A stretch of DNA of 33,760 nucleotides from positions 1-33,760 of the forward strand of contig PSLI01000024.1 in the NCBI GenBank assembly GCA_040289515.1, read 5' to 3'. A program made the translations under genes and the position numbers. Source of the stretch: Candidatus Sysuimicrobiota bacterium. Lineage in GTDB: Bacteria > Sysuimicrobiota > Sysuimicrobiia > Sysuimicrobiales > Sysuimicrobiaceae. Positions 18,520-32,487 of the stretch are shown one piece after another. The notes under the pieces were generated by a model, which searched no databases, was not told where the DNA came from, and saw nothing but the letters and a program-made list of their open reading frames with translations. Position 1 is the first letter of the stretch, and each line of letters opens with the position of its first letter.

Positions 18520-19224
18520 CTAGGGCGGCCCCTGCCGGTGCAGGTCCAGCAGGGCTTCCCGCAGGCGCGCCAGCAGATCCTGTTCTCCGTGCGGGCCCGG
18601 CTGCAGGGGAGGTCCAAAGCGGACGGCCACCCGTCGGGGGCGCGGAATCACGCTCCCCAGGGGCAGCGCGCGATCCGTGCCGTAGATCCACGCGGGCACC
18701 ACCGGGGCCCCGCCGCGCACACTGAGCAGGGCCACGCCGCGCCGCAGGGATGCCAGGGGCTGCCCGGTGCGGTTCACGCCGCCTTCCGGGAACAGGGCCA
18801 GGACTCCTCCGGAGTCCAGCACCTGCAGGGCCGCGCGCAAGGCAGCCCCGGTGTACGCACCGGGGTCCAGCTCCGTGCGCCGGACCGGAATGAACCCGTA
18901 CCACCGCACCACAGGCGCGATCACGTGTACAAGGCCGGCCCAGGGCAGGAACCCGGGGCTGATGCGCCAGCCCACCAGCTCCTCCGACCCCACGAACACC
19001 GCGCGCCTGGGAAGGGCAGCCGCCAGTGCCACGGGGTCCAGCCACGAACGGTGGTTGGCGGCTACTATGGCCGGGCCGCGGTCCGGGAAGAACTCCTGCC
19101 CCGCACAACGGAAAGCGAACAGAAACCACAGCAAGCAGCGCACCCCACCCGCCACCAGCCGGTAGTCCCACGTGTGCGCGGGGAGCGCTCCCACGGAAAC
19201 TTCCGGGCCTCTCCGGTTATCCAC
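18520..19224 (-). CDS. PlsC-like lysophospholipid acyltransferase
   Basis: ANHRSWLD (HxxxxD), FIPVRR, LFPEG, PVVP. Confidence 0.88.
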   Translation of the reverse strand: MDNRRGPEVSVGALPAHTWDYRLVAGGVRCLLWFLFAFRCAGQEFFPDRGPAIVAANHRSWLDPVALAAALPRRAVFVGSEELVGWRISPGFLPWAGLVHVIAPVVRWYGFIPVRRTELDPGAYTGAALRAALQVLDSGGVLALFPEGGVNRTGQPLASLRRGVALLSVRGGAPVVPAWIYGTDRALPLGSVIPRPRRVAVRFGPPLQPGPHGEQDLLARLREALLDLHRQGPP

Positions 19225-20491
19225 CCCGCGCCAGCTCTAGCACCAGCGGCAGGACCTCCACCCCCCGCAGCTTCCCCAACCGTCCCCGGGCCGCCGCCGA
19301 CTCGCCGAACCCTCCCGCGCCGTCTTGCGGCCCGCCCGGGCGCCACACAAGAAGGGGAACCGGGTCGTCGGTGTGCGCGCCCACCTCGCACACCGTGGCG
19401 TGGTCTGCGGTGACCACCACCACCACATCCCCGCGCCCCCGCAGACCTTCCCGCAGCGGCCCGAAGAAGTGCGCGTCGATCCCCTCGATGACCGCGCGCT
19501 TCGCCTGCCAGTTGCCGTCGTGGGCCGGCTCGTCCGGCCCCTTGAGGTGCACGTACAGCCCGTCCCACCGGTCCAGCTGCCGAAGAGCCTCCTCCGCCCA
19601 CGCCGCATACACCCTCACGTCCCGGCCGCTCGGCGGCACCTCCACCACCCCCATGCCCAGCAGGCGCGCAATCCCCCGCTCCACGGGCATCTCCACGAAG
19701 CAGGCGAACCGGGCACCCATCCTCTCCGCGAAGGGCGGTACGGGCGGGACGTGGTCGCTCGCGTCCCGCAGAAGCACCAAGTTGGCGGGCGACTCACCCC
19801 GCTGTCGGCGGCGCTGGTTGACGGGGTGCGATTCCAGGACCCGGCGGCTGCGCTCGGCGAACTCGTTCACCAGGTCCGCAGCCCGCGCTGCACCCGGGCT
19901 ACCGTCCAGGGGCACACAGGGCTCCACCTCGTCCCTGACCACGGTCCTAGCCACCCCCAGGACGCCGACCCGGCCGTACGCGGGGTCGGTGTTGGAGATC
20001 TGGCTCGACAGCTGCAACGCGGGGTCGTACAGAACCAGCACGCACCGGTGCCCCACACTGGCCTCGAACCGGAAACTGGCCCCAGACAGGTGTACCTGCT
20101 CCTGCACCGCTTGGGCGAGCTCCCGCGCCTCGTCGCTGCGGAGGCTGCGGCCCACCCGGCGGTCCAAGATCCGCCGCCCTTCCCCCGCGGTGGCGAAGTT
20201 CCCCCGCAGAGCCAGGTTGCCGTCCCGGAAGGGGATGCCCATACCCAGGGCCTCCAGCAACCCCCGGCCCGCATGGTACTGGAAGGGGTCGTAGCCCAAA
20301 ATGGCGGTCACCGCTACGTCCGACTCCGGCGCGATGCCCTCCCCCACGGTAAGCACCAGGCCTTGTTGCCCTTCTGCGGCCAGCGCGTCCAGGTGCGGAG
20401 TGCTGGCCGCCTCCAGGGGCGTCCTACCTCCGAGCCCCTCCACCGGCCGGTCTGCCAGCCCGTCCAGAATCACGTACAGGACCTTCCGCAC
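19217..20491 (-). CDS. apgM: 2,3-bisphosphoglycerate-independent phosphoglycerate mutase, ApgM type
   Basis: ILDGLADRP, TPLEAA.TP.LD, PESD, GRGLLEALG, KGPDEPAHDG, TADHAT; GTG start at 20491 behind GGAGGT. Confidence 0.88.
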   Translation of the reverse strand: MRKVLYVILDGLADRPVEGLGGRTPLEAASTPHLDALAAEGQQGLVLTVGEGIAPESDVAVTAILGYDPFQYHAGRGLLEALGMGIPFRDGNLALRGNFATAGEGRRILDRRVGRSLRSDEARELAQAVQEQVHLSGASFRFEASVGHRCVLVLYDPALQLSSQISNTDPAYGRVGVLGVARTVVRDEVEPCVPLDGSPGAARAADLVNEFAERSRRVLESHPVNQRRRQRGESPANLVLLRDASDHVPPVPPFAERMGARFACFVEMPVERGIARLLGMGVVEVPPSGRDVRVYAAWAEEALRQLDRWDGLYVHLKGPDEPAHDGNWQAKRAVIEGIDAHFFGPLREGLRGRGDVVVVVTADHATVCEVGAHTDDPVPLLVWRPGGPQDGAGGFGESAAARGRLGKLRGVEVLPLVLELARGG

Positions 20492-20502
20492 GCGCCACCT
20501 CC

Positions 20503-21288
20503 CTACGGATCGTCCCGCAGGCGCTCCCACAGCTCGGCCAGGTCATCCACTACCAGCTCGGGCCGCACGGGAGCGCGGGCAGCTTCCTCTGCGGAGGTCA
20601 ACCCGGTCAGCACCAGGGCGGTGCGCATCCCCAACCGTGAAGCGCCGAGGATGTCGGTGGCGATCTGGTCGCCCACCATCAGGGTTTCCTGGGGCGCGGT
20701 ACCGAGCCTCCGGAGCGCCATCTCAAAGGGGTACGGCTCGGGTTTGCCCACCGATGTGGGCTCACAGCCCGTGGCGGTCCGAATGGCGGCCACGATGGCA
20801 CCCGCCCCGGGCCACAGCTCGCCTTCCACGGGCAGGTTGGCGTCTAGGTTGGTGGCCACAAACCGGGCACCCCGCCGGATAGCGGAACACGCGGTGCGCA
20901 GCCGGGCGTAGGTGAATTCCACGTCCAGCCCCACGACCACCGCCGCGGCCTCCGGCTCCTCCGTCAGCGGGTAGCCCGCCCGCCGCACAGCCTCCCGCAG
21001 CCCCTGGCCGCCCACCACCACCACGGGGCCCCGAAGGTCCCAGCTGCGCAGCAGCTCCGCCGCGCACAGGGCGGAGGTGATCACCTGCGCCTCCCCCGCG
21101 CGCACCCCCATCCGCTCCAGGTGCTGTACGTACTGCCCCGGGGTGCGGGTGGAGTTGTTGGTGACGAAGGCGAAGGGGATTCCCCGTCGGGCCAGCCAGT
21201 CCACAAACTCCACCGCACCCGGAAGCGCGCGGCTTCCGCGGTACACCACCCCGTCCAGATCCAGGACGACGCCGCGAGGCAGGCTCAC
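20503..21288 (-). CDS. HAD-IIA (NagD-like) phosphatase
   Basis: DLDGVVY, VTNNS, ATNLD, VGKP, MVGDQIATDI, VLTG. Confidence 0.92.
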   Translation of the reverse strand: MSLPRGVVLDLDGVVYRGSRALPGAVEFVDWLARRGIPFAFVTNNSTRTPGQYVQHLERMGVRAGEAQVITSALCAAELLRSWDLRGPVVVVGGQGLREAVRRAGYPLTEEPEAAAVVVGLDVEFTYARLRTACSAIRRGARFVATNLDANLPVEGELWPGAGAIVAAIRTATGCEPTSVGKPEPYPFEMALRRLGTAPQETLMVGDQIATDILGASRLGMRTALVLTGLTSAEEAARAPVRPELVVDDLAELWERLRDDP

Positions 21289-22154
21289 CCTTCACCCGCG
21301 GAGCGTAGGTGCTCCACAAACTCCGGGGCCAGCTGGCCCGTGTACACCTGGGAGGCGGGTCCCGTCAGGCGCAGGTGGAAGTTCCCTTCCACGAGGACCC
21401 GCAGCACCCCGCCGTCCATCTCCACCTGCACCGCCCGGCCCGTGAGGCCCCGCCGCACGCACGCGGCGGCCACCGCGCACGCGCTGGACCCGGAGGCCAG
21501 AGTTTCCCCCGCACCCCGCTCCCAGATCCGCACCCGGACTCGGTCGGGCCCGCGCACCTGGGCGAACTGTACGTTGGTGCGCTGCGGGAAGAAGGGGTGC
21601 CGCTCCAGGGCCGGCCCCAGTCGGTAGAAGTCCACCTGCGCTAGGTCGTCGGTGAACAGCACGCAGTGGGGGTTCCCCACGTTCACCGCGGTGATCCGCA
21701 AAAGCTCCCCCTCTACCTCCAGGGGCTCGTCCACCGCCTCCCGCACGGGCCCCGCCAGGGGGATCCGGTCGCTGCGGAAGGTGGCCTGCCCCATGTCCAC
21801 CGTTACCTGCACCACGCGCCCGGCTTGCAACTCCAACTGGCAGCGCACCACACCGCCCGGCGTTTCCACGGTGAACTGGGGGCTGCGGGCGTATCCGTGG
21901 TCATACAGGTACCTGGCGAAGATCCTCAGCCCGTTGCCGCTTTTCTCCGCCTCGCTGCCGTCGGGGTTGTAGATGCGCAGACCGAAGTCCGCCCGCTCCG
22001 AGGGCACGCGGACCAGCACGCCGTCGGAGCCCACGCCGAAGTGGCGGTCGCAGAGGCGACGGACGACCTGCGGGGTAAGGGGGAAGTCGAGCTCTCCGCC
22101 CTCCAGCACGAGGTAATCGTTGCCCAGGGCGTGGGACTTGACGAAGCGCGTCAT
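21285..22154 (-). CDS. dapF: diaminopimelate epimerase-family protein (Ser/Ser active-site variant)
   Basis: FVKSHALGNDY, CDRHFGVGSDG, IYNPDGSEAEKSGNG, VGNPH, WERGAGETLASGS; ATG overlaps the ddl stop (ATGA). Confidence 0.88.
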   Translation of the reverse strand: MTRFVKSHALGNDYLVLEGGELDFPLTPQVVRRLCDRHFGVGSDGVLVRVPSERADFGLRIYNPDGSEAEKSGNGLRIFARYLYDHGYARSPQFTVETPGGVVRCQLELQAGRVVQVTVDMGQATFRSDRIPLAGPVREAVDEPLEVEGELLRITAVNVGNPHCVLFTDDLAQVDFYRLGPALERHPFFPQRTNVQFAQVRGPDRVRVRIWERGAGETLASGSSACAVAAACVRRGLTGRAVQVEMDGGVLRVLVEGNFHLRLTGPASQVYTGQLAPEFVEHLRSAGEG

Positions 22155-23236
22155 GCCTGCGAGACCTCCATCCGGATCCGAGCACCTCCCTCGTACACCG
22201 TGCACAGGGCGTTGCGGCGGGCCCACCGCGCCAGGGCCAGGTCCACCAGGCGGCTGATGAGCTCCCGGTACGGGATGCCGGAGGCCTCCCACAGCTTCGG
22301 GTACATGCTGATGGGTGTAAACCCCGGGATGGTGTTCACCTCGCTCACGTACACCCGCCCCGCCGGTTCCAGCAGGAAGTCCACCCGGGCCATCCCGGAC
22401 AGCCGCAGGACGCGGTAGGCCTCTCGCGCGAGGACGCGTACTTCTTCCGCCCGTTGGGGGGAGATTTGGGCAGGGATCACCAGCTCCGCCCCCTGCGGAT
22501 CCAGGTACTTGGCCTGGTAGTTGTAAAAAGCGTACTTCGGCCGAGCGGGACGGACCTCCCCGGGCACGGAGGCAATGGGGTCGTCGTTGCCCAGCACGCT
22601 CACCTCCACCTCCACAGGGTCCGGCACCGCGCGCTCCACGATCACCGCGAGGTCGTACCGCAAGGCGTCCTGGACCGCCCCCGGGAGCGCCTCGGGATCC
22701 TCCACGCGGTGCACGCCCACGGAGGAGCCCAGACGCGTGGGTTTCACGAAGCACGGGTAACCCAGGGTCGCCACCCGCTCCCCCACGCCCTGAGGGTCGC
22801 GTTGCCACCGGTAGGCTTCCACCACGACGAAGGGCACCACGGGCAACCCGGCCTCCCGCAGGAGAGCCTTCTGGACCCCCTTGTCCATCCCCACAGCGGA
22901 GCCCAGCACGTCCGCGCCCACGTAGGGCACGTTCACCATCTCCAATAGCCCCTGCACGGTACCGTCCTCCCCGTAGGTGCCGTGCAGAACGGGGAACACC
23001 ACATCGCAAACGATCTCCTGCCCGCCGGCCACCAGCACCGCCTTGCCCACGCGGTCCAGGCGCAGCCAGACGGGCTGCCCGTCCACCCACCACCGGCCAT
23101 CCTGCCCGATGAACACCTCCACCACCGAAAACCGATCCGGGTCCGCGGCACGCACCACGGAGCGCGCGGAGATGCACGAAACCTCGTGCTCCCCGGAACG
23201 ACCTCCGTACAGCACGGCTAGGGTTAAGCGGCTCAC
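22151..23236 (-). CDS. ddl: D-alanine--D-alanine ligase
   Basis: LYGGRSGEHEVS, FPVLHGTYGEDG, GSSVG, FYNYQAKY, ARVDF, EVNTIPGFT..SMYP; GTG start behind GGAGGAGG. Confidence 0.96.
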   Translation of the reverse strand: MSRLTLAVLYGGRSGEHEVSCISARSVVRAADPDRFSVVEVFIGQDGRWWVDGQPVWLRLDRVGKAVLVAGGQEIVCDVVFPVLHGTYGEDGTVQGLLEMVNVPYVGADVLGSAVGMDKGVQKALLREAGLPVVPFVVVEAYRWQRDPQGVGERVATLGYPCFVKPTRLGSSVGVHRVEDPEALPGAVQDALRYDLAVIVERAVPDPVEVEVSVLGNDDPIASVPGEVRPARPKYAFYNYQAKYLDPQGAELVIPAQISPQRAEEVRVLAREAYRVLRLSGMARVDFLLEPAGRVYVSEVNTIPGFTPISMYPKLWEASGIPYRELISRLVDLALARWARRNALCTVYEGGARIRMEVSQA

Positions 23237-23276
23237 GTTCCTCCTCCACGCGGTGCGGCCCTCCGGCCGCAGTGTG

Positions 23277-23305
23277 ACAATAGGAGGGAGCCCCGGCACC
23301 GTCAA
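23277..23305 (-). promoter_or_regulatory. putative sigma70 promoter of the ddl operon
   Basis: TTGACG-17 nt-TATTGT about 40 nt upstream of the ddl start. Confidence 0.7.
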
Positions 23306-24834: not shown

Positions 24835-25539
24835 CTAGTGCAGCCCGCTGCGGCGCATCAGCCGCTGGAACTCTCGCTTGCGGCGCCAGCGCCGGTACGC
24901 CTCCACGGGCCCCAAACCACGTAACGGTGCCCGCCCTCCGAACTGGCCGGAAGCGTACGCCCAGCTCAGCGCGCAGCCCGCGAGGGCAAAAACCCCTAGG
25001 GGGAAGGGAAACGAGAAGAACACCACCGCCGCCGCCAGCGGCCCCACCCACCGCCCTTCCACGGGCACCGCCAAGTACAACAACAGGCGCTCGTGGGGGT
25101 TCAGCACCGACCAGGCCACCGAGCACGCCGCCACAGGCAGCCACAGCCCCGAAAGCGCCACCCCCTGGTTCAGCCAGGCCGCCGCCAGCCACAGGGCCAT
25201 CGCGGGTGTCGGCGTGGTGAGCAGCAGGAAACGCACGTAGTCCCGGGGCAGCCAGCTACGCTCCAGGCTGCCTCCGAACACCCACAGCACGTACGCGGAC
25301 AGCACGAGGGAGATCACGGACCCGCTCCCGTCCAGCGCGTACGTGAGCACCGTCCACGGGCGTGCCGCCACGGCGGAGGGGGAAAAGGACAGGGCGAGGT
25401 CGAGCCCCACAAACGAAGCCAGGAAGGTGGCCGTGTTGGCCCCGATCCACGTCCACGTGACCGGGCAGGATCCAGGCAGCGAACTCCACCATTGGGCTCT
25501 CACGGGTCTGTACCTTGCCTTCGCAGCGTCTCTCTCCAT
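24835..25539 (-). CDS. rhomboid-like intramembrane protein, apparently lacking catalytic residues
   Basis: PVT...I.AN, PWTVLTY, LWVFGGSLERSW, NP..RLLLY..VPV..RW pattern, multiple TM helices; start uncertain. Confidence 0.75.
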   Translation of the reverse strand: MERDAAKARYRPVRAQWWSSLPGSCPVTWTWIGANTATFLASFVGLDLALSFSPSAVAARPWTVLTYALDGSGSVISLVLSAYVLWVFGGSLERSWLPRDYVRFLLLTTPTPAMALWLAAAWLNQGVALSGLWLPVAACSVAWSVLNPHERLLLYLAVPVEGRWVGPLAAAVVFFSFPFPLGVFALAGCALSWAYASGQFGGRAPLRGLGPVEAYRRWRRKREFQRLMRRSGLH

Positions 25540-25631
25540 GCTGGCCCCGGGGCCCCGGGGGGTCAAGACGGTCGCCTCCCGGGCGGCGATCCGTAGGACG
25601 CTACCCTGGCGGGGTGGGGTTCCGGCATAGC

Positions 25632-25790
25632 GGAGCGGTAGACCCTGCGGGACTCCTGGTGGTGGCCAGTGCGGGCGCAGACTCCCTGACGCTGTACGCT
25701 CCGGGAGCCGCCGGGAACACCACACCGCTGCGCACTGTGGGAGGACCGCGCACAGGCCTGGGCCTTCCGTGGGGCGTGACGGTGCGGCCG
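25632..25790 (+). pseudogene. isolated NHL/beta-propeller-like repeat remnant
   Basis: GAVDPAGLLVVASAGADSLTLYAPGAAGNTTPLRTVGGPRTGLGLPWGVTV resembles one propeller blade; no credible start, and flanking frame is non-protein-like. Confidence 0.55.
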
Positions 25791-25802
25791 TGGCCGAAAA
25801 AG

Positions 25803-26261
25803 TCACCGAACCAGCCACCGGAGCCCCGCCAGCACGCCAGCGCTGGCCGCGGTCACCGCGGCGCCTGCCAGCACCACACCCATCGCCACCGCGGTCCACG
25901 CCCGTCCCCTCGGCAGGCCCACCAGCCAGCCCAAAAGCGTGCCTGCGTAGGCACCGGTCCCCGGCAGGGGCAGCGCCACGAACAGCACTAGACCCCACGC
26001 GGCGTAGCGCCTCACGTACCCCTCCCCGCGCCGCCGGACCCGCTCCACCTGCCGGGCCACCCACGGCCACCGGGACAGCCAGTGCACATCCAGCCAGTCT
26101 AGGAGGATCCAGCTCACCGGGACGACCAGCAGGTTCGCCGCGGTGCACACCGCGAACGCTACGAAAGGCTCCGTACCCAAAGCCAGCGCCACCGGGATGG
26201 AACCCCGAAGCTCCACCCACGGCACGAGGCTGAGGGCCGCCGCCCACCACAAGGCGCTCAC
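25803..26261 (-). CDS. COG2426 / small multi-drug export family membrane protein
   Basis: PWVELRGSIP and GLVLFVALPLPGTGAY signatures; GTG overlaps upstream TGA (GTGA). Confidence 0.88.
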   Translation of the reverse strand: MSALWWAAALSLVPWVELRGSIPVALALGTEPFVAFAVCTAANLLVVPVSWILLDWLDVHWLSRWPWVARQVERVRRRGEGYVRRYAAWGLVLFVALPLPGTGAYAGTLLGWLVGLPRGRAWTAVAMGVVLAGAAVTAASAGVLAGLRWLVR

Positions 26262-30574: not shown

Positions 30575-31648
30575 ATGACGGACCGGGTGGTGGAGCTGTT
30601 CCGGGAGCTGACGGAGGCGCCCGGGGTTCCGGGGTTTGAGGAGCCGGTGCGCGCGGTGCTGCGCAAGCACCTGAGCCCCCTGGGGGAGATCCTGCAGGAC
30701 CGGCTGGGCAGCCTCGTGGCGCGCAAGCAAGGGACCAGCGCCCAGCCCAAGGTGATGGTGGCGGGCCATATGGACGAGATCGGGTTCCTGGTAACCCGCA
30801 TTACGGAGGAGGGCTACCTCAAGTTCCAGACCCTCGGCGGCTGGTGGTCGCAGGTGATGCTGGCGCAGCGGGTCCGGGTGTGGACGCGCCAGGGACCCGT
30901 GCTGGGCGTGATCGGCAGTAAGCCGCCCCACCTGCTGGACGAGGAGGAACGGAAGAAGCCGGTGGATCCCAAGGACATGTACATCGACGTGGGCGCCACC
31001 AGCCGAGAGGAAGCCGAGCGGTTCGGGATCCGGCCCGGGGATCCCGTGGTTCCCGAGTCTCCCTTTTCGGTGCTCCACAACCCCCGGTTGATGGTGGCCA
31101 AGGCGTGGGACAACCGCTTCGGCTGTGCCGCGGTGGTGGAGATCCTGCGGGCACTGCACGAGGAGCCACACCCCAACACCGTGTACGGGGTGTGCAGCGT
31201 GCAGGAGGAGGTGGGCCTGCGGGGCGCCCAGACGGCCACGCACCTGGTCCAGCCCGACGTGGGCATCGCCCTGGATACGGGGATCGCGGGCGACACGCCG
31301 GCCGTCAAACCAGACGAGGCGCAGGCCAAACTCGGCAAGGGACCTGTCATCCTCCTGTACGACGCCAGCATGATCCCCCACGTGCGCCTTCGGGACCTGG
31401 TGGTGGAGGTGGCGGAGACAGAGGGGATCCCTTACCAGTTTGACCGCGTGGCGCGGGGCGGAACGGACGCGGGACGCATCCACACGTTCGGCGTGGGCGT
31501 GCCCTCCATCGTAATCGGCGCTCCCGTGCGCTACATCCACAGCCACAACGCGGTCCTGCACCGGGACGACTTCGACCACGCGGTGCGGCTGGTCACCGCC
31601 GTGATCCGGCGGCTGGACGCGGCCACGCTGGAGCATTTGGTGAGCTGA
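30575..31648 (+). CDS. M42 family aminopeptidase (TET-like)
   Basis: GHMDEIG, KAWDNR, QEEVGLRGA, GGTDAG, YIHS; ATG at 30575. Confidence 0.94.
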   Translation: MTDRVVELFRELTEAPGVPGFEEPVRAVLRKHLSPLGEILQDRLGSLVARKQGTSAQPKVMVAGHMDEIGFLVTRITEEGYLKFQTLGGWWSQVMLAQRVRVWTRQGPVLGVIGSKPPHLLDEEERKKPVDPKDMYIDVGATSREEAERFGIRPGDPVVPESPFSVLHNPRLMVAKAWDNRFGCAAVVEILRALHEEPHPNTVYGVCSVQEEVGLRGAQTATHLVQPDVGIALDTGIAGDTPAVKPDEAQAKLGKGPVILLYDASMIPHVRLRDLVVEVAETEGIPYQFDRVARGGTDAGRIHTFGVGVPSIVIGAPVRYIHSHNAVLHRDDFDHAVRLVTAVIRRLDAATLEHLVS

Positions 31649-32487
31649 TGCTGCCGCAGAGCCCCACGGCCCTGTGGTTGGCCCGGCTGGCGAACGCGCA
31701 GGGCCGCCGGCGGCTGGGCCGTTATCTGCTGGCCGGCTGCGCGGGAGGCTTTCTGGCGACCTCCGGCGCGCTGGGTTGGGAACGGTGGTTCTTCTGGGCC
31801 ATGCTGTGGGGGGCGGCGGTGTTCGTGCCCCTGCGGCTGGCGGTGGAGCTGGCAGGCGCCCGGGGACAGCATGTGCGGGTTGCCTACCGGCAAGCGTTCC
31901 CCGACCGCGTGACCGCGGGCAACTTGCCCCTGGTGGTGCAGGGGGTGTACGAACGGGAGGTGCTGATGCCCCGCATCGCCACCCCGCCCTACGTGGCAAA
32001 GGTGCAGGAGACGGTGGTGGCGGTGGGGCGGGCGGCCCTGGCCACCTCCCAGCCGGGAGAAGTCCTGCGGCGCGCTGCTTGGCGGCTGGTGGGCGTGGCG
32101 GACGGGTGGATAGTGGAGATGCGAGTGCAGCGGGAGCGGGATCCCGCCTCCACCAACATCCAGGCCCGGTGGCAGGAAGTCCGGTCACTGGCGGTGCTGG
32201 CGGCGGCAGCGCGGGTGCTGGTGGCCCTCTCGGAGGAGCTGGGCGGCCAGCCCTTCCACGTACCCGGCCTGGATGCGGAGCAGGTGCGGGCGTTTTTGGA
32301 CGACGCCTTGGCGTACCTGGATCGCGCCGCCTTGGACCCCGACGTGCCCCCGTGGCACGGGACCCCCCTGGGCGTATGGACCCCGGAGGTGGTGGAGCTG
32401 CGCAGCCGGTGGGAGCACTACCTGGAGGTGGTGGGGCCGGCTCCCTCGCGCCTGGCTGCGGTGGTGGAGGAGCTGGTGGTAGGATGA
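31648..32487 (+). CDS. hypothetical protein with two N-terminal hydrophobic segments
   Basis: Overlaps both neighbours (TGATG and ATGA), GC3-rich codon usage; no family recognised. Confidence 0.75.
   Translation: MLPQSPTALWLARLANAQGRRRLGRYLLAGCAGGFLATSGALGWERWFFWAMLWGAAVFVPLRLAVELAGARGQHVRVAYRQAFPDRVTAGNLPLVVQGVYEREVLMPRIATPPYVAKVQETVVAVGRAALATSQPGEVLRRAAWRLVGVADGWIVEMRVQRERDPASTNIQARWQEVRSLAVLAAAARVLVALSEELGGQPFHVPGLDAEQVRAFLDDALAYLDRAALDPDVPPWHGTPLGVWTPEVVELRSRWEHYLEVVGPAPSRLAAVVEELVVG

Follow-up and report, generated by a model that had tools for sequence, protein, structure and literature searches.

The dapF gene of the window, by which is meant the whole 33,760-nucleotide stretch of DNA that was analysed, encodes a diaminopimelate-type (DAP) epimerase homologue of 289 residues, P0001, in which serine occupies both catalytic cysteine positions. 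P0001 is a member of the published Ser/Ser DapF class, as judged by its two serines and its DapF fold, and probably acts as a working housekeeping LL-/meso-DAP epimerase that is the sole member of its family in the host, a reading built on sequence comparison and genome context. The find of a two-serine DapF is real but has been in print since 2025. That an enzyme class characterised by its thiol/thiolate pair can operate with two serines instead is of mechanistic interest, but this too is already published. What is new here is minor and comprises the sole-copy status of the gene across its lineage, a lineage-specific linkage to ddl and a group of residues that track the Ser/Ser class. The context added to the published class includes lineage-wide reliance on the Ser/Ser form alone, its presence in at least 21 named phyla and its fusions to LysA, MurE and Alr. 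meso-DAP is a precursor of both the cell wall and lysine, and annotation rules that require two cysteines would wrongly call such genomes DapF-deficient.

The dapF gene and the fold of P0001

The gene lies on the minus strand between ddl and a hydrolase gene, and the features of the locus are the following.

21285..22154, minus strand: Ser/Ser-type dapF encoding P0001 (289 aa), TGA stop included; stop-free ORF translation
21939..21941, minus strand: codon AGC of Ser72, site of the first catalytic cysteine (H. influenzae Cys73); alignment to solved DapFs
21492..21494, minus strand: codon TCC of Ser221, site of the second catalytic cysteine (H. influenzae Cys217); alignment to solved DapFs
21942..21944, minus strand: codon of Lys71, class-specific, adjoining Ser72; class comparison
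21921..21923, minus strand: codon of Ile78, class-specific; class comparison
21567..21569, minus strand: codon CAG of Gln196 (the Q of TNVQF), class-specific; class comparison
21483..21485, minus strand: codon of Ser224 (in SGSS), class-specific, three positions past Ser221; class comparison
22151..23305, minus strand: ddl (D-alanine--D-alanine ligase), directly upstream of dapF; NF002528, 416.9 bits, cut-off 262
22151..22154, minus strand: ATGA shared by the end of ddl and the beginning of dapF; read from the sequence
20503..21288, minus strand: HAD-IIA family hydrolase gene, downstream of dapF; TIGR01460, 163 bits, cut-off 100

The ATG of dapF (22154-22152) overlaps the TGA of ddl (22153-22151) and is preceded by a GGAGG located 10 nt upstream of the start (22169-22165), while the dapF stop overlaps the GTG start of the hydrolase gene (GTGA, 21288-21285). 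The stop-free frame of 289 residues and the ATGA overlap uphold the initial annotation in its description of an intact dapF translationally coupled to ddl.

P0001 matches the DapF equivalog model TIGR00652 with 255.4 bits (cut-off 114.65) over residues 3-275 of its 289, displays two PF01678 matches (202 bits) and is matched by solved DapFs at E values of 5.6e-66 to 1e-53 over the same residues. Both motifs, AEKSGNG and ETLASGSSAC, occur in the protein, and in HMMER alignments with 9mro, 8qzy and 5ha4 Ser72 (AGC, 21941-21939) falls in the column of the (M/Q)CGNG cysteine and Ser221 (TCC, 21494-21492) in that of the ACGTG cysteine. The replacement of both catalytic cysteines by serine, as originally proposed, was thus borne out by alignment: the thiol/thiolate cysteine pair of DapF is absent from P0001, and serine fills both columns. 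No other cysteine is shifted into either catalytic column in the alignments to these three structures, an outcome that had been named in advance as one that could overturn the proposal.

An AlphaFold2 model of P0001 built from 54 homologues (mean pLDDT 97, pTM 0.93) places Ser72 immediately before helix 73-85 and Ser221 immediately before helix 222-234. The model and its Foldseek matches display the DapF fold of two pseudo-symmetric alpha/beta domains with the catalytic positions at helix N-termini. The top Foldseek match is the cyanobacterial DapF 9mro_A (TM 0.90/0.93, rmsd 1.9 A), followed by other DapFs and then by PhzF and proline racemases at 14-19% identity. Among the solved structures in the Foldseek listing no natural Ser/Ser DapF occurs, the serine forms being the engineered 2q9h and 2q9j. 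In the mechanism envisaged, Ser72 and Ser221 would each cap one of the two central helices at its N-terminus and may act as an acid/base pair, the alpha-proton being taken off one face of the substrate and returned on the other. We infer that P0001 is catalytically active and that the two serines serve as its bases.

Conservation, spread and class-specific residues

The best 120 of 7998 scored proteins (62-84% identity) are all Ser/Ser, like the query. Two genome searches, one returning 41 relatives and the other, a 'phylum' search, 80 genomes, together cover 82 genomes; all 80 genomes of the 'phylum' search belong to the same order, deeper relatives in the phylum lying outside the sample. One strong dapF match is present in 79 of these 82 lineage genomes, and none was found in the remaining three, G053, G060 and G065 (93, 87 and 80% complete). 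Among the 79 genes read, 77 are Ser/Ser and two are truncated at contig ends, their one surviving site coding for Ser. The Ser72 codon is AGC or AGT in 78/78 readable lineage genes, and the Ser221 codon is TCN in 78/78 (TCC 32, TCG 39, TCA 3, TCT 4). Because both serine codons are kept in 78 genes per site while turning over synonymously, the Ser/Ser state is not a matter of chance, in agreement with the earlier proposal that the paired Cys-to-Ser state is under selection. A sequencing or assembly artefact, or recent gene decay in a MAG, would draw on nothing but the draft state of the genome with its 76 contigs; the same state recurs in 77 independent lineage genomes and in 80 loci of the genome scan described below, the frame is intact and the serine codons vary synonymously, so that this explanation has a negligible probability and is already refuted.

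Several side observations concern the same genomes. Many of the 120 best matches are named as Armatimonadota MAG proteins, and the lineage is of high GC and labelled Armatimonadota in NCBI names; no literature linking DapF with Armatimonadetes was found. In G051, a genome with 7% contamination, there is an additional, distant homologue (30% identity) whose first catalytic site is Cys.

In 28 of the 30 lineage loci with flanks, dapF directly follows a ddl-like gene of the same strand; of the other two, one is without a ddl-like gene in its 1.5-kb flank and the other is truncated by the end of its contig. The HAD-IIA hydrolase gene follows dapF in 13 of the 30, in closer relatives only. In contrast, a ddl-like gene stands beside dapF in only 2 of the 80 best loci of the genome scan, both of which resemble the lineage of the window. 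Coupling to ddl thus fails as a mark of the Ser/Ser class and is a trait of this lineage.

Beyond the lineage, a 50%-identity cluster database with 1.84 billion representatives was searched, and the best 150 representatives were classified as Ser/Ser (81), Cys/Cys (57), mixed or other (8) and fragments covering one site (4). The eight mixed or other states comprise three S/C and one each of C/S, T/C, S/T, R/S and S/R. A scan of species-representative genomes with a Ser/Ser alignment as query gave at least 598 confirmed stretches, the best 80 of which were inspected. All 80 are Ser/Ser and come from at least 21 named phyla, figures that describe spread and not frequency since the query was itself Ser/Ser and one of the three search patterns contained SGNG. 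The best 80 include 24 loci from Verrucomicrobiota, 9 from Bacteroidota and 8 from Thermodesulfobacteriota, and further phyla among them are Planctomycetota, Chloroflexota, Deinococcota, Aquificota, Nitrospirota and Actinomycetota. Cultured bacteria that carry the Ser/Ser form include Tangfeifania diversioriginum DSM 27063 and Pseudomonas sp. 21. In the other phyla each of the two serine sites is encoded by AGY in some genes and by TCN in others; switches between AGY and TCN need two base changes, and the serine state is therefore old.

A FastTree phylogeny was computed for 144 representatives after seven rows with less than 85% coverage had been dropped and seven class-marking columns removed. 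The distribution of Ser/Ser and Cys/Cys over this tree, in which support is below 80% on 66 of the 141 inner branches, requires at least three changes. A single group (support 96) holds 56 of the 57 Cys/Cys rows together with two S/C, two S/S and one C/S row. Ser/Ser and Cys/Cys DapFs thus appear to form largely separate lineages.

The two classes were compared column by column using 80 Ser/Ser rows and 57 Cys/Cys rows, the latter being the Cys/Cys sequences closest to the query rather than a cross-section of DapFs. Apart from the catalytic positions themselves, the strongest class markers are positions 78, 224, 71, 196, 246 and 210. Position 78 is Ile in 76/80 Ser/Ser rows and Cys in 50/57 Cys/Cys rows, position 224 is Ser in 75/80 against Gly in 57/57, position 71 is Lys in 66/80 against Met in 52/57, and position 196 is Gln in 73/80 against Glu in 47/57. 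Similarly, position 246 is Met in Ser/Ser and Leu in Cys/Cys, and position 210 is Ile in Ser/Ser and Val in Cys/Cys. The TNVQF motif that had been remarked on in place of the usual NVEF is therefore real, its Gln being the class-specific residue at position 196. The class-tracking changes cluster around the two catalytic bases, and Lys71, Ile78, Gln196 and Ser224 may tune the serines. These few class-specific positions could serve as a guide for mutagenesis.

Other cysteines were considered as possible replacement bases and not adopted. Cys35 (80/80 Ser/Ser against 34/57 Cys/Cys rows) and Cys164 (68/80 against 29/57) are enriched in the Ser/Ser class yet also occur in Cys/Cys rows, and no cysteine exclusive to the Ser/Ser class was found at other positions in the same comparison.

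Substrate pocket, pathway context and domain fusions

Asn11, Asn64, Asn75, Asn157, Asn190, Glu208 and Arg209 are the residues that we take to bind DAP in H. influenzae DapF. Their counterparts Asn12, Asn63, Asn74, Asn161, Asn194, Glu212 and Arg213 are all present in P0001 and, together with Thr218, are at least 85% conserved in Ser/Ser and Cys/Cys rows alike. As the pocket residues are common to both classes, the substrate is most likely unchanged.

The host genome is a draft of 1.99 Mb in 76 contigs with an estimated completeness of 96.66%, about 3% thus being missing. dapF is its only PF01678 match; the check for a canonical Cys/Cys dapF that the initial annotation had called for was run on this draft and gave no second PF01678 gene, although one could lie in the missing part. 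The genome contains lysA (452 bits, above cut-off), two dapA genes, an LL-DAP aminotransferase (NF006756, 579 bits against a cut-off of 507) and murE. The product of murE displays the motif SDNPR, which presumably marks meso-DAP-adding ligases. DAP dehydrogenase was not found in the host genome (best score 22 bits against a cut-off of 180.6). The pathway of the host thus yields LL-DAP and lacks a DAP dehydrogenase, and epimerisation is therefore needed. The only genes of the alanine-racemase type are one alr (TIGR00492, 341.8 bits) and one yggS-type gene (YggS), so that a PLP-type DapF2 backup is not visible in the host. Both backup routes to meso-DAP that were considered, DAP dehydrogenase and a second, DapF2-like Alr, are thus absent from this genome.

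In several of the Ser/Ser cluster representatives the DapF domain is fused to a further domain. Fusions to a LysA-type decarboxylase were found in P0152 and P0185 and, as a partial sequence, in P0165, the LysA-DapF architecture recurring in three different clusters. A MurE-type Mur ligase is joined to the Ser/Ser domain in P0174 (a 90% cluster with 8 members) and an alanine racemase in P0194 and P0236, while fusions to GGACT, methyltransferase and GNAT domains occur once each. Several of the fusion proteins are each represented by one sequence on one contig, and gene calling could have run neighbouring genes together in these cases. LysA- and MurE-type enzymes are both consumers of meso-DAP, and fusion to them would fit a DAP epimerase role.

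These observations bear on whether P0001 could epimerise or racemise some other amino acid, in the manner of HisR/CntK (histidine) or DcsC (O-ureidoserine). In favour of this, the text available of PMC11602996 describes DapF-fold enzymes that have taken on other substrates, the O-ureidoserine racemase 7vdy matches P0001 at 159 bits, and the two catalytic changes together with Lys71 and Gln196 could accompany a changed chemistry. A different substrate is nevertheless highly improbable, given that the residues gripping both ends of DAP are conserved, that DapF scores 226 bits against the 159 of DcsC, and that other families of the fold remain below cut-off, namely the bifunctional DapF/Glu racemases (NF038284, 79.5 against 350) and the proline racemases (PF05544, Pro_racemase, 15.4 against 27). 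In addition, the host needs a DapF and has no other, and Ser/Ser domains are fused to LysA- and MurE-type domains. Of the two functions offered in the initial annotation, racemisation of a different peptidoglycan amino acid accordingly loses to a Ser/Ser epimerase on the conserved DAP pocket, the lack of any other DapF homologue in a genome where LL-DAP must be converted to meso-DAP, and the LysA/MurE fusions, evidence by which the epimerase is favoured as the probable function.

A second question is whether P0001 might have little or no catalytic activity and be retained for a different function, as in the partnership of DapF with RppH in E. coli, with meso-DAP supplied by a promiscuous or unrecognised racemase. 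Canonical Cys-to-Ser mutants are reported to be slowed (PMC11602996; PMC12039745, in the text available), a non-catalytic role of DapF with RppH is described for E. coli in the accessible part of PMC13728532, and from what is available of PMC13759103 E. coli is viable without dapF and Staphylococcus has a PLP-type DapF2. The same source states that the E. coli dapF deletion is without a growth defect, another racemase being thought to supply some meso-DAP. Since that deletion grows normally, being the sole DapF homologue is a weaker proof of activity than it would seem. An inactive P0001 is unlikely all the same: near-invariant substrate-binding residues across 21 phyla are not expected of a dead enzyme, the single alr-type racemase of the host is needed for the D-alanine of Ddl, the LysA/MurE fusions suggest hand-over of substrate, and natural Ser/Ser DapFs are reported to be catalytic in work cited in the available text of PMC13728532. 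An active Ser/Ser epimerase thus remains the preferred reading of P0001.

The single-copy status of the gene suggests that the Ser/Ser form is the primary enzyme and not a stress spare. A broader proposal, to which about an even chance is given, is that the Ser/Ser form is the sole meso-DAP route lineage-wide and probably in many of the at least 21 phyla, again not as a stress spare, with Lys71, Ile78, Gln196 and Ser224 making the serines competent. If this is true, carbon-acid deprotonation by serine is mainstream in cell-wall building, and these four residues are a defined set for swapping between the classes.

Comparison with known enzymes

Canonical Cys/Cys DapF (EC 5.1.1.7), with structures such as 9mro from Anabaena, 1gqz and 2gke from H. 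influenzae, 4ijz from E. coli and 3ejx from A. thaliana, resembles P0001 in length, in its two-domain fold (TM 0.82-0.93) and at 36-40% identity, and shares with it the residues of the DAP pocket and probably the pathway role. In contrast, the canonical enzyme has Cys at both catalytic positions, where P0001 has Ser, and carries Met, Cys, Glu, Gly, Leu and Val at the positions of Lys71, Ile78, Gln196, Ser224, Met246 and Ile210, respectively. The engineered H. influenzae variants C73S and C217S (PDB 2q9h, 2q9j) have one serine and the same fold as P0001, but are single laboratory swaps in a Cys/Cys background, employed for the slowing of catalysis that they bring, whereas the natural class combines both serines with covarying residues. 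Serine alone is not sufficient, because catalysis is hindered in Cys-to-Ser mutants of canonical enzymes of the DapF class, as the available text of PMC11602996 and PMC12039745 has it. The DapF2 of Staphylococcus, from the part seen of PMC13759103, is like P0001 a non-canonical way to the same pathway step, but is PLP-dependent and Alr2-like, with a fold and cofactor unrelated to those of P0001. The GapMind 2026 paper, to the extent of its available text, likewise concerns DapF2 and not Ser/Ser DapF.

The closest known enzymes are the natural DapFs with two catalytic serines published by Lamer, van Belkum, Chen et al. (J Mol Biol 437(21):169375, 2025), a paper represented here by its citation in the accessible part of PMC13728532, which vindicates the caution of the initial annotation that such variants might already be described. 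Like P0001, these enzymes are reported to combine the DapF fold with Ser at both catalytic positions. Their two serines are described there as catalytic, the example being the second DapF of Anabaena sp. YBS01, in which changing the serines to cysteines results in inactivation; oxidation resistance of the Ser/Ser form is raised in the same text as a suggestion. In Anabaena sp. YBS01, on that account, the Ser/Ser enzyme stands beside a Cys/Cys enzyme as a possible aid under oxidative stress, whereas in the host of P0001 and in 79 related genomes the Ser/Ser form is the only DapF.

Further cysteine residues in the Ser/Ser protein

Besides the two catalytic positions, at which the window protein carries serine (Ser/Ser) where others carry cysteine (Cys/Cys), the DapF homologue displays two cysteines elsewhere, whose codons lie within dapF.
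22050-22052, (-): codon of Cys35, cysteine in 80 of 80 Ser/Ser rows vs 34 of 57 Cys/Cys rows
21663-21665, (-): codon of Cys164, in the motif NPHC, cysteine in 68 of 80 Ser/Ser rows vs 29 of 57 Cys/Cys rows
Cys35 is invariant across the Ser/Ser rows compared and less common in the Cys/Cys rows.

Catalytic states among relatives

In the tree of 144 representatives the P0150 cluster, which bears the name Candidatus Solincola (Actinomycetota), as well as P0222 and P0197, all of them Ser/Ser, are placed within or adjoining the Cys/Cys group. The motifs flanking the catalytic serines of P0150 differ (AGVSGNGL and LASAAG), which hints that Cys-to-Ser conversion occurred in independent events. Mixed catalytic pairs, given as first/second position, are also observed among the cluster representatives, comprising S/C (P0212, P0266 and P0135), C/S (P0186), T/C (P0211) and S/T (P0272); these proteins could be intermediate stages, could catalyse some other reaction, or could simply reflect errors. 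In addition, one relative harbours a second, distant DapF-family homologue at 30% identity (locus L103, G051:C218:4900-5800), with a first catalytic site that reads MCGNA. It lies on a contig of 5.8 kb and may be of foreign origin, since genome G051 has a contamination of 7%.

Other genes in the window

One further gene and two ORFs are listed here.
19217-20530, (-): apgM-type phosphoglycerate mutase gene, apgM model 404 bits, above the cut-off of 320
24835-26250, (-): ORF of 471 aa with coding-like composition
31648-32487, (+): ORF of 279 aa with coding-like composition
The PhpG phosphonoformyl-transferase model scores 458.9 bits on the first gene, under its own cut-off of 545 yet exceeding the apgM score, and the product is probably an ordinary ApgM. 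Neither ORF matched an NCBIfam family at E <= 1e-5.

Domain fusions and named carriers

Among metagenome proteins, Ser/Ser DapF domains are joined to a LysA-type decarboxylase (P0152, P0185 and P0165), a MurE-type ligase (P0174) or an alanine racemase (P0194 and P0236), and further partners include GGACT (P0136), methyltransferase (P0246) and GNAT (P0260) domains. Several of these fusions are single sequences, which may originate from run-on gene calls. Within the best 80 of 598 confirmed stretches of the genome scan, Ser/Ser dapF is found in Tangfeifania diversioriginum DSM 27063 (L170) and Pseudomonas sp. 21 (L120), whose records carry no metagenome-assembled-genome label; both would be suitable for bench work.
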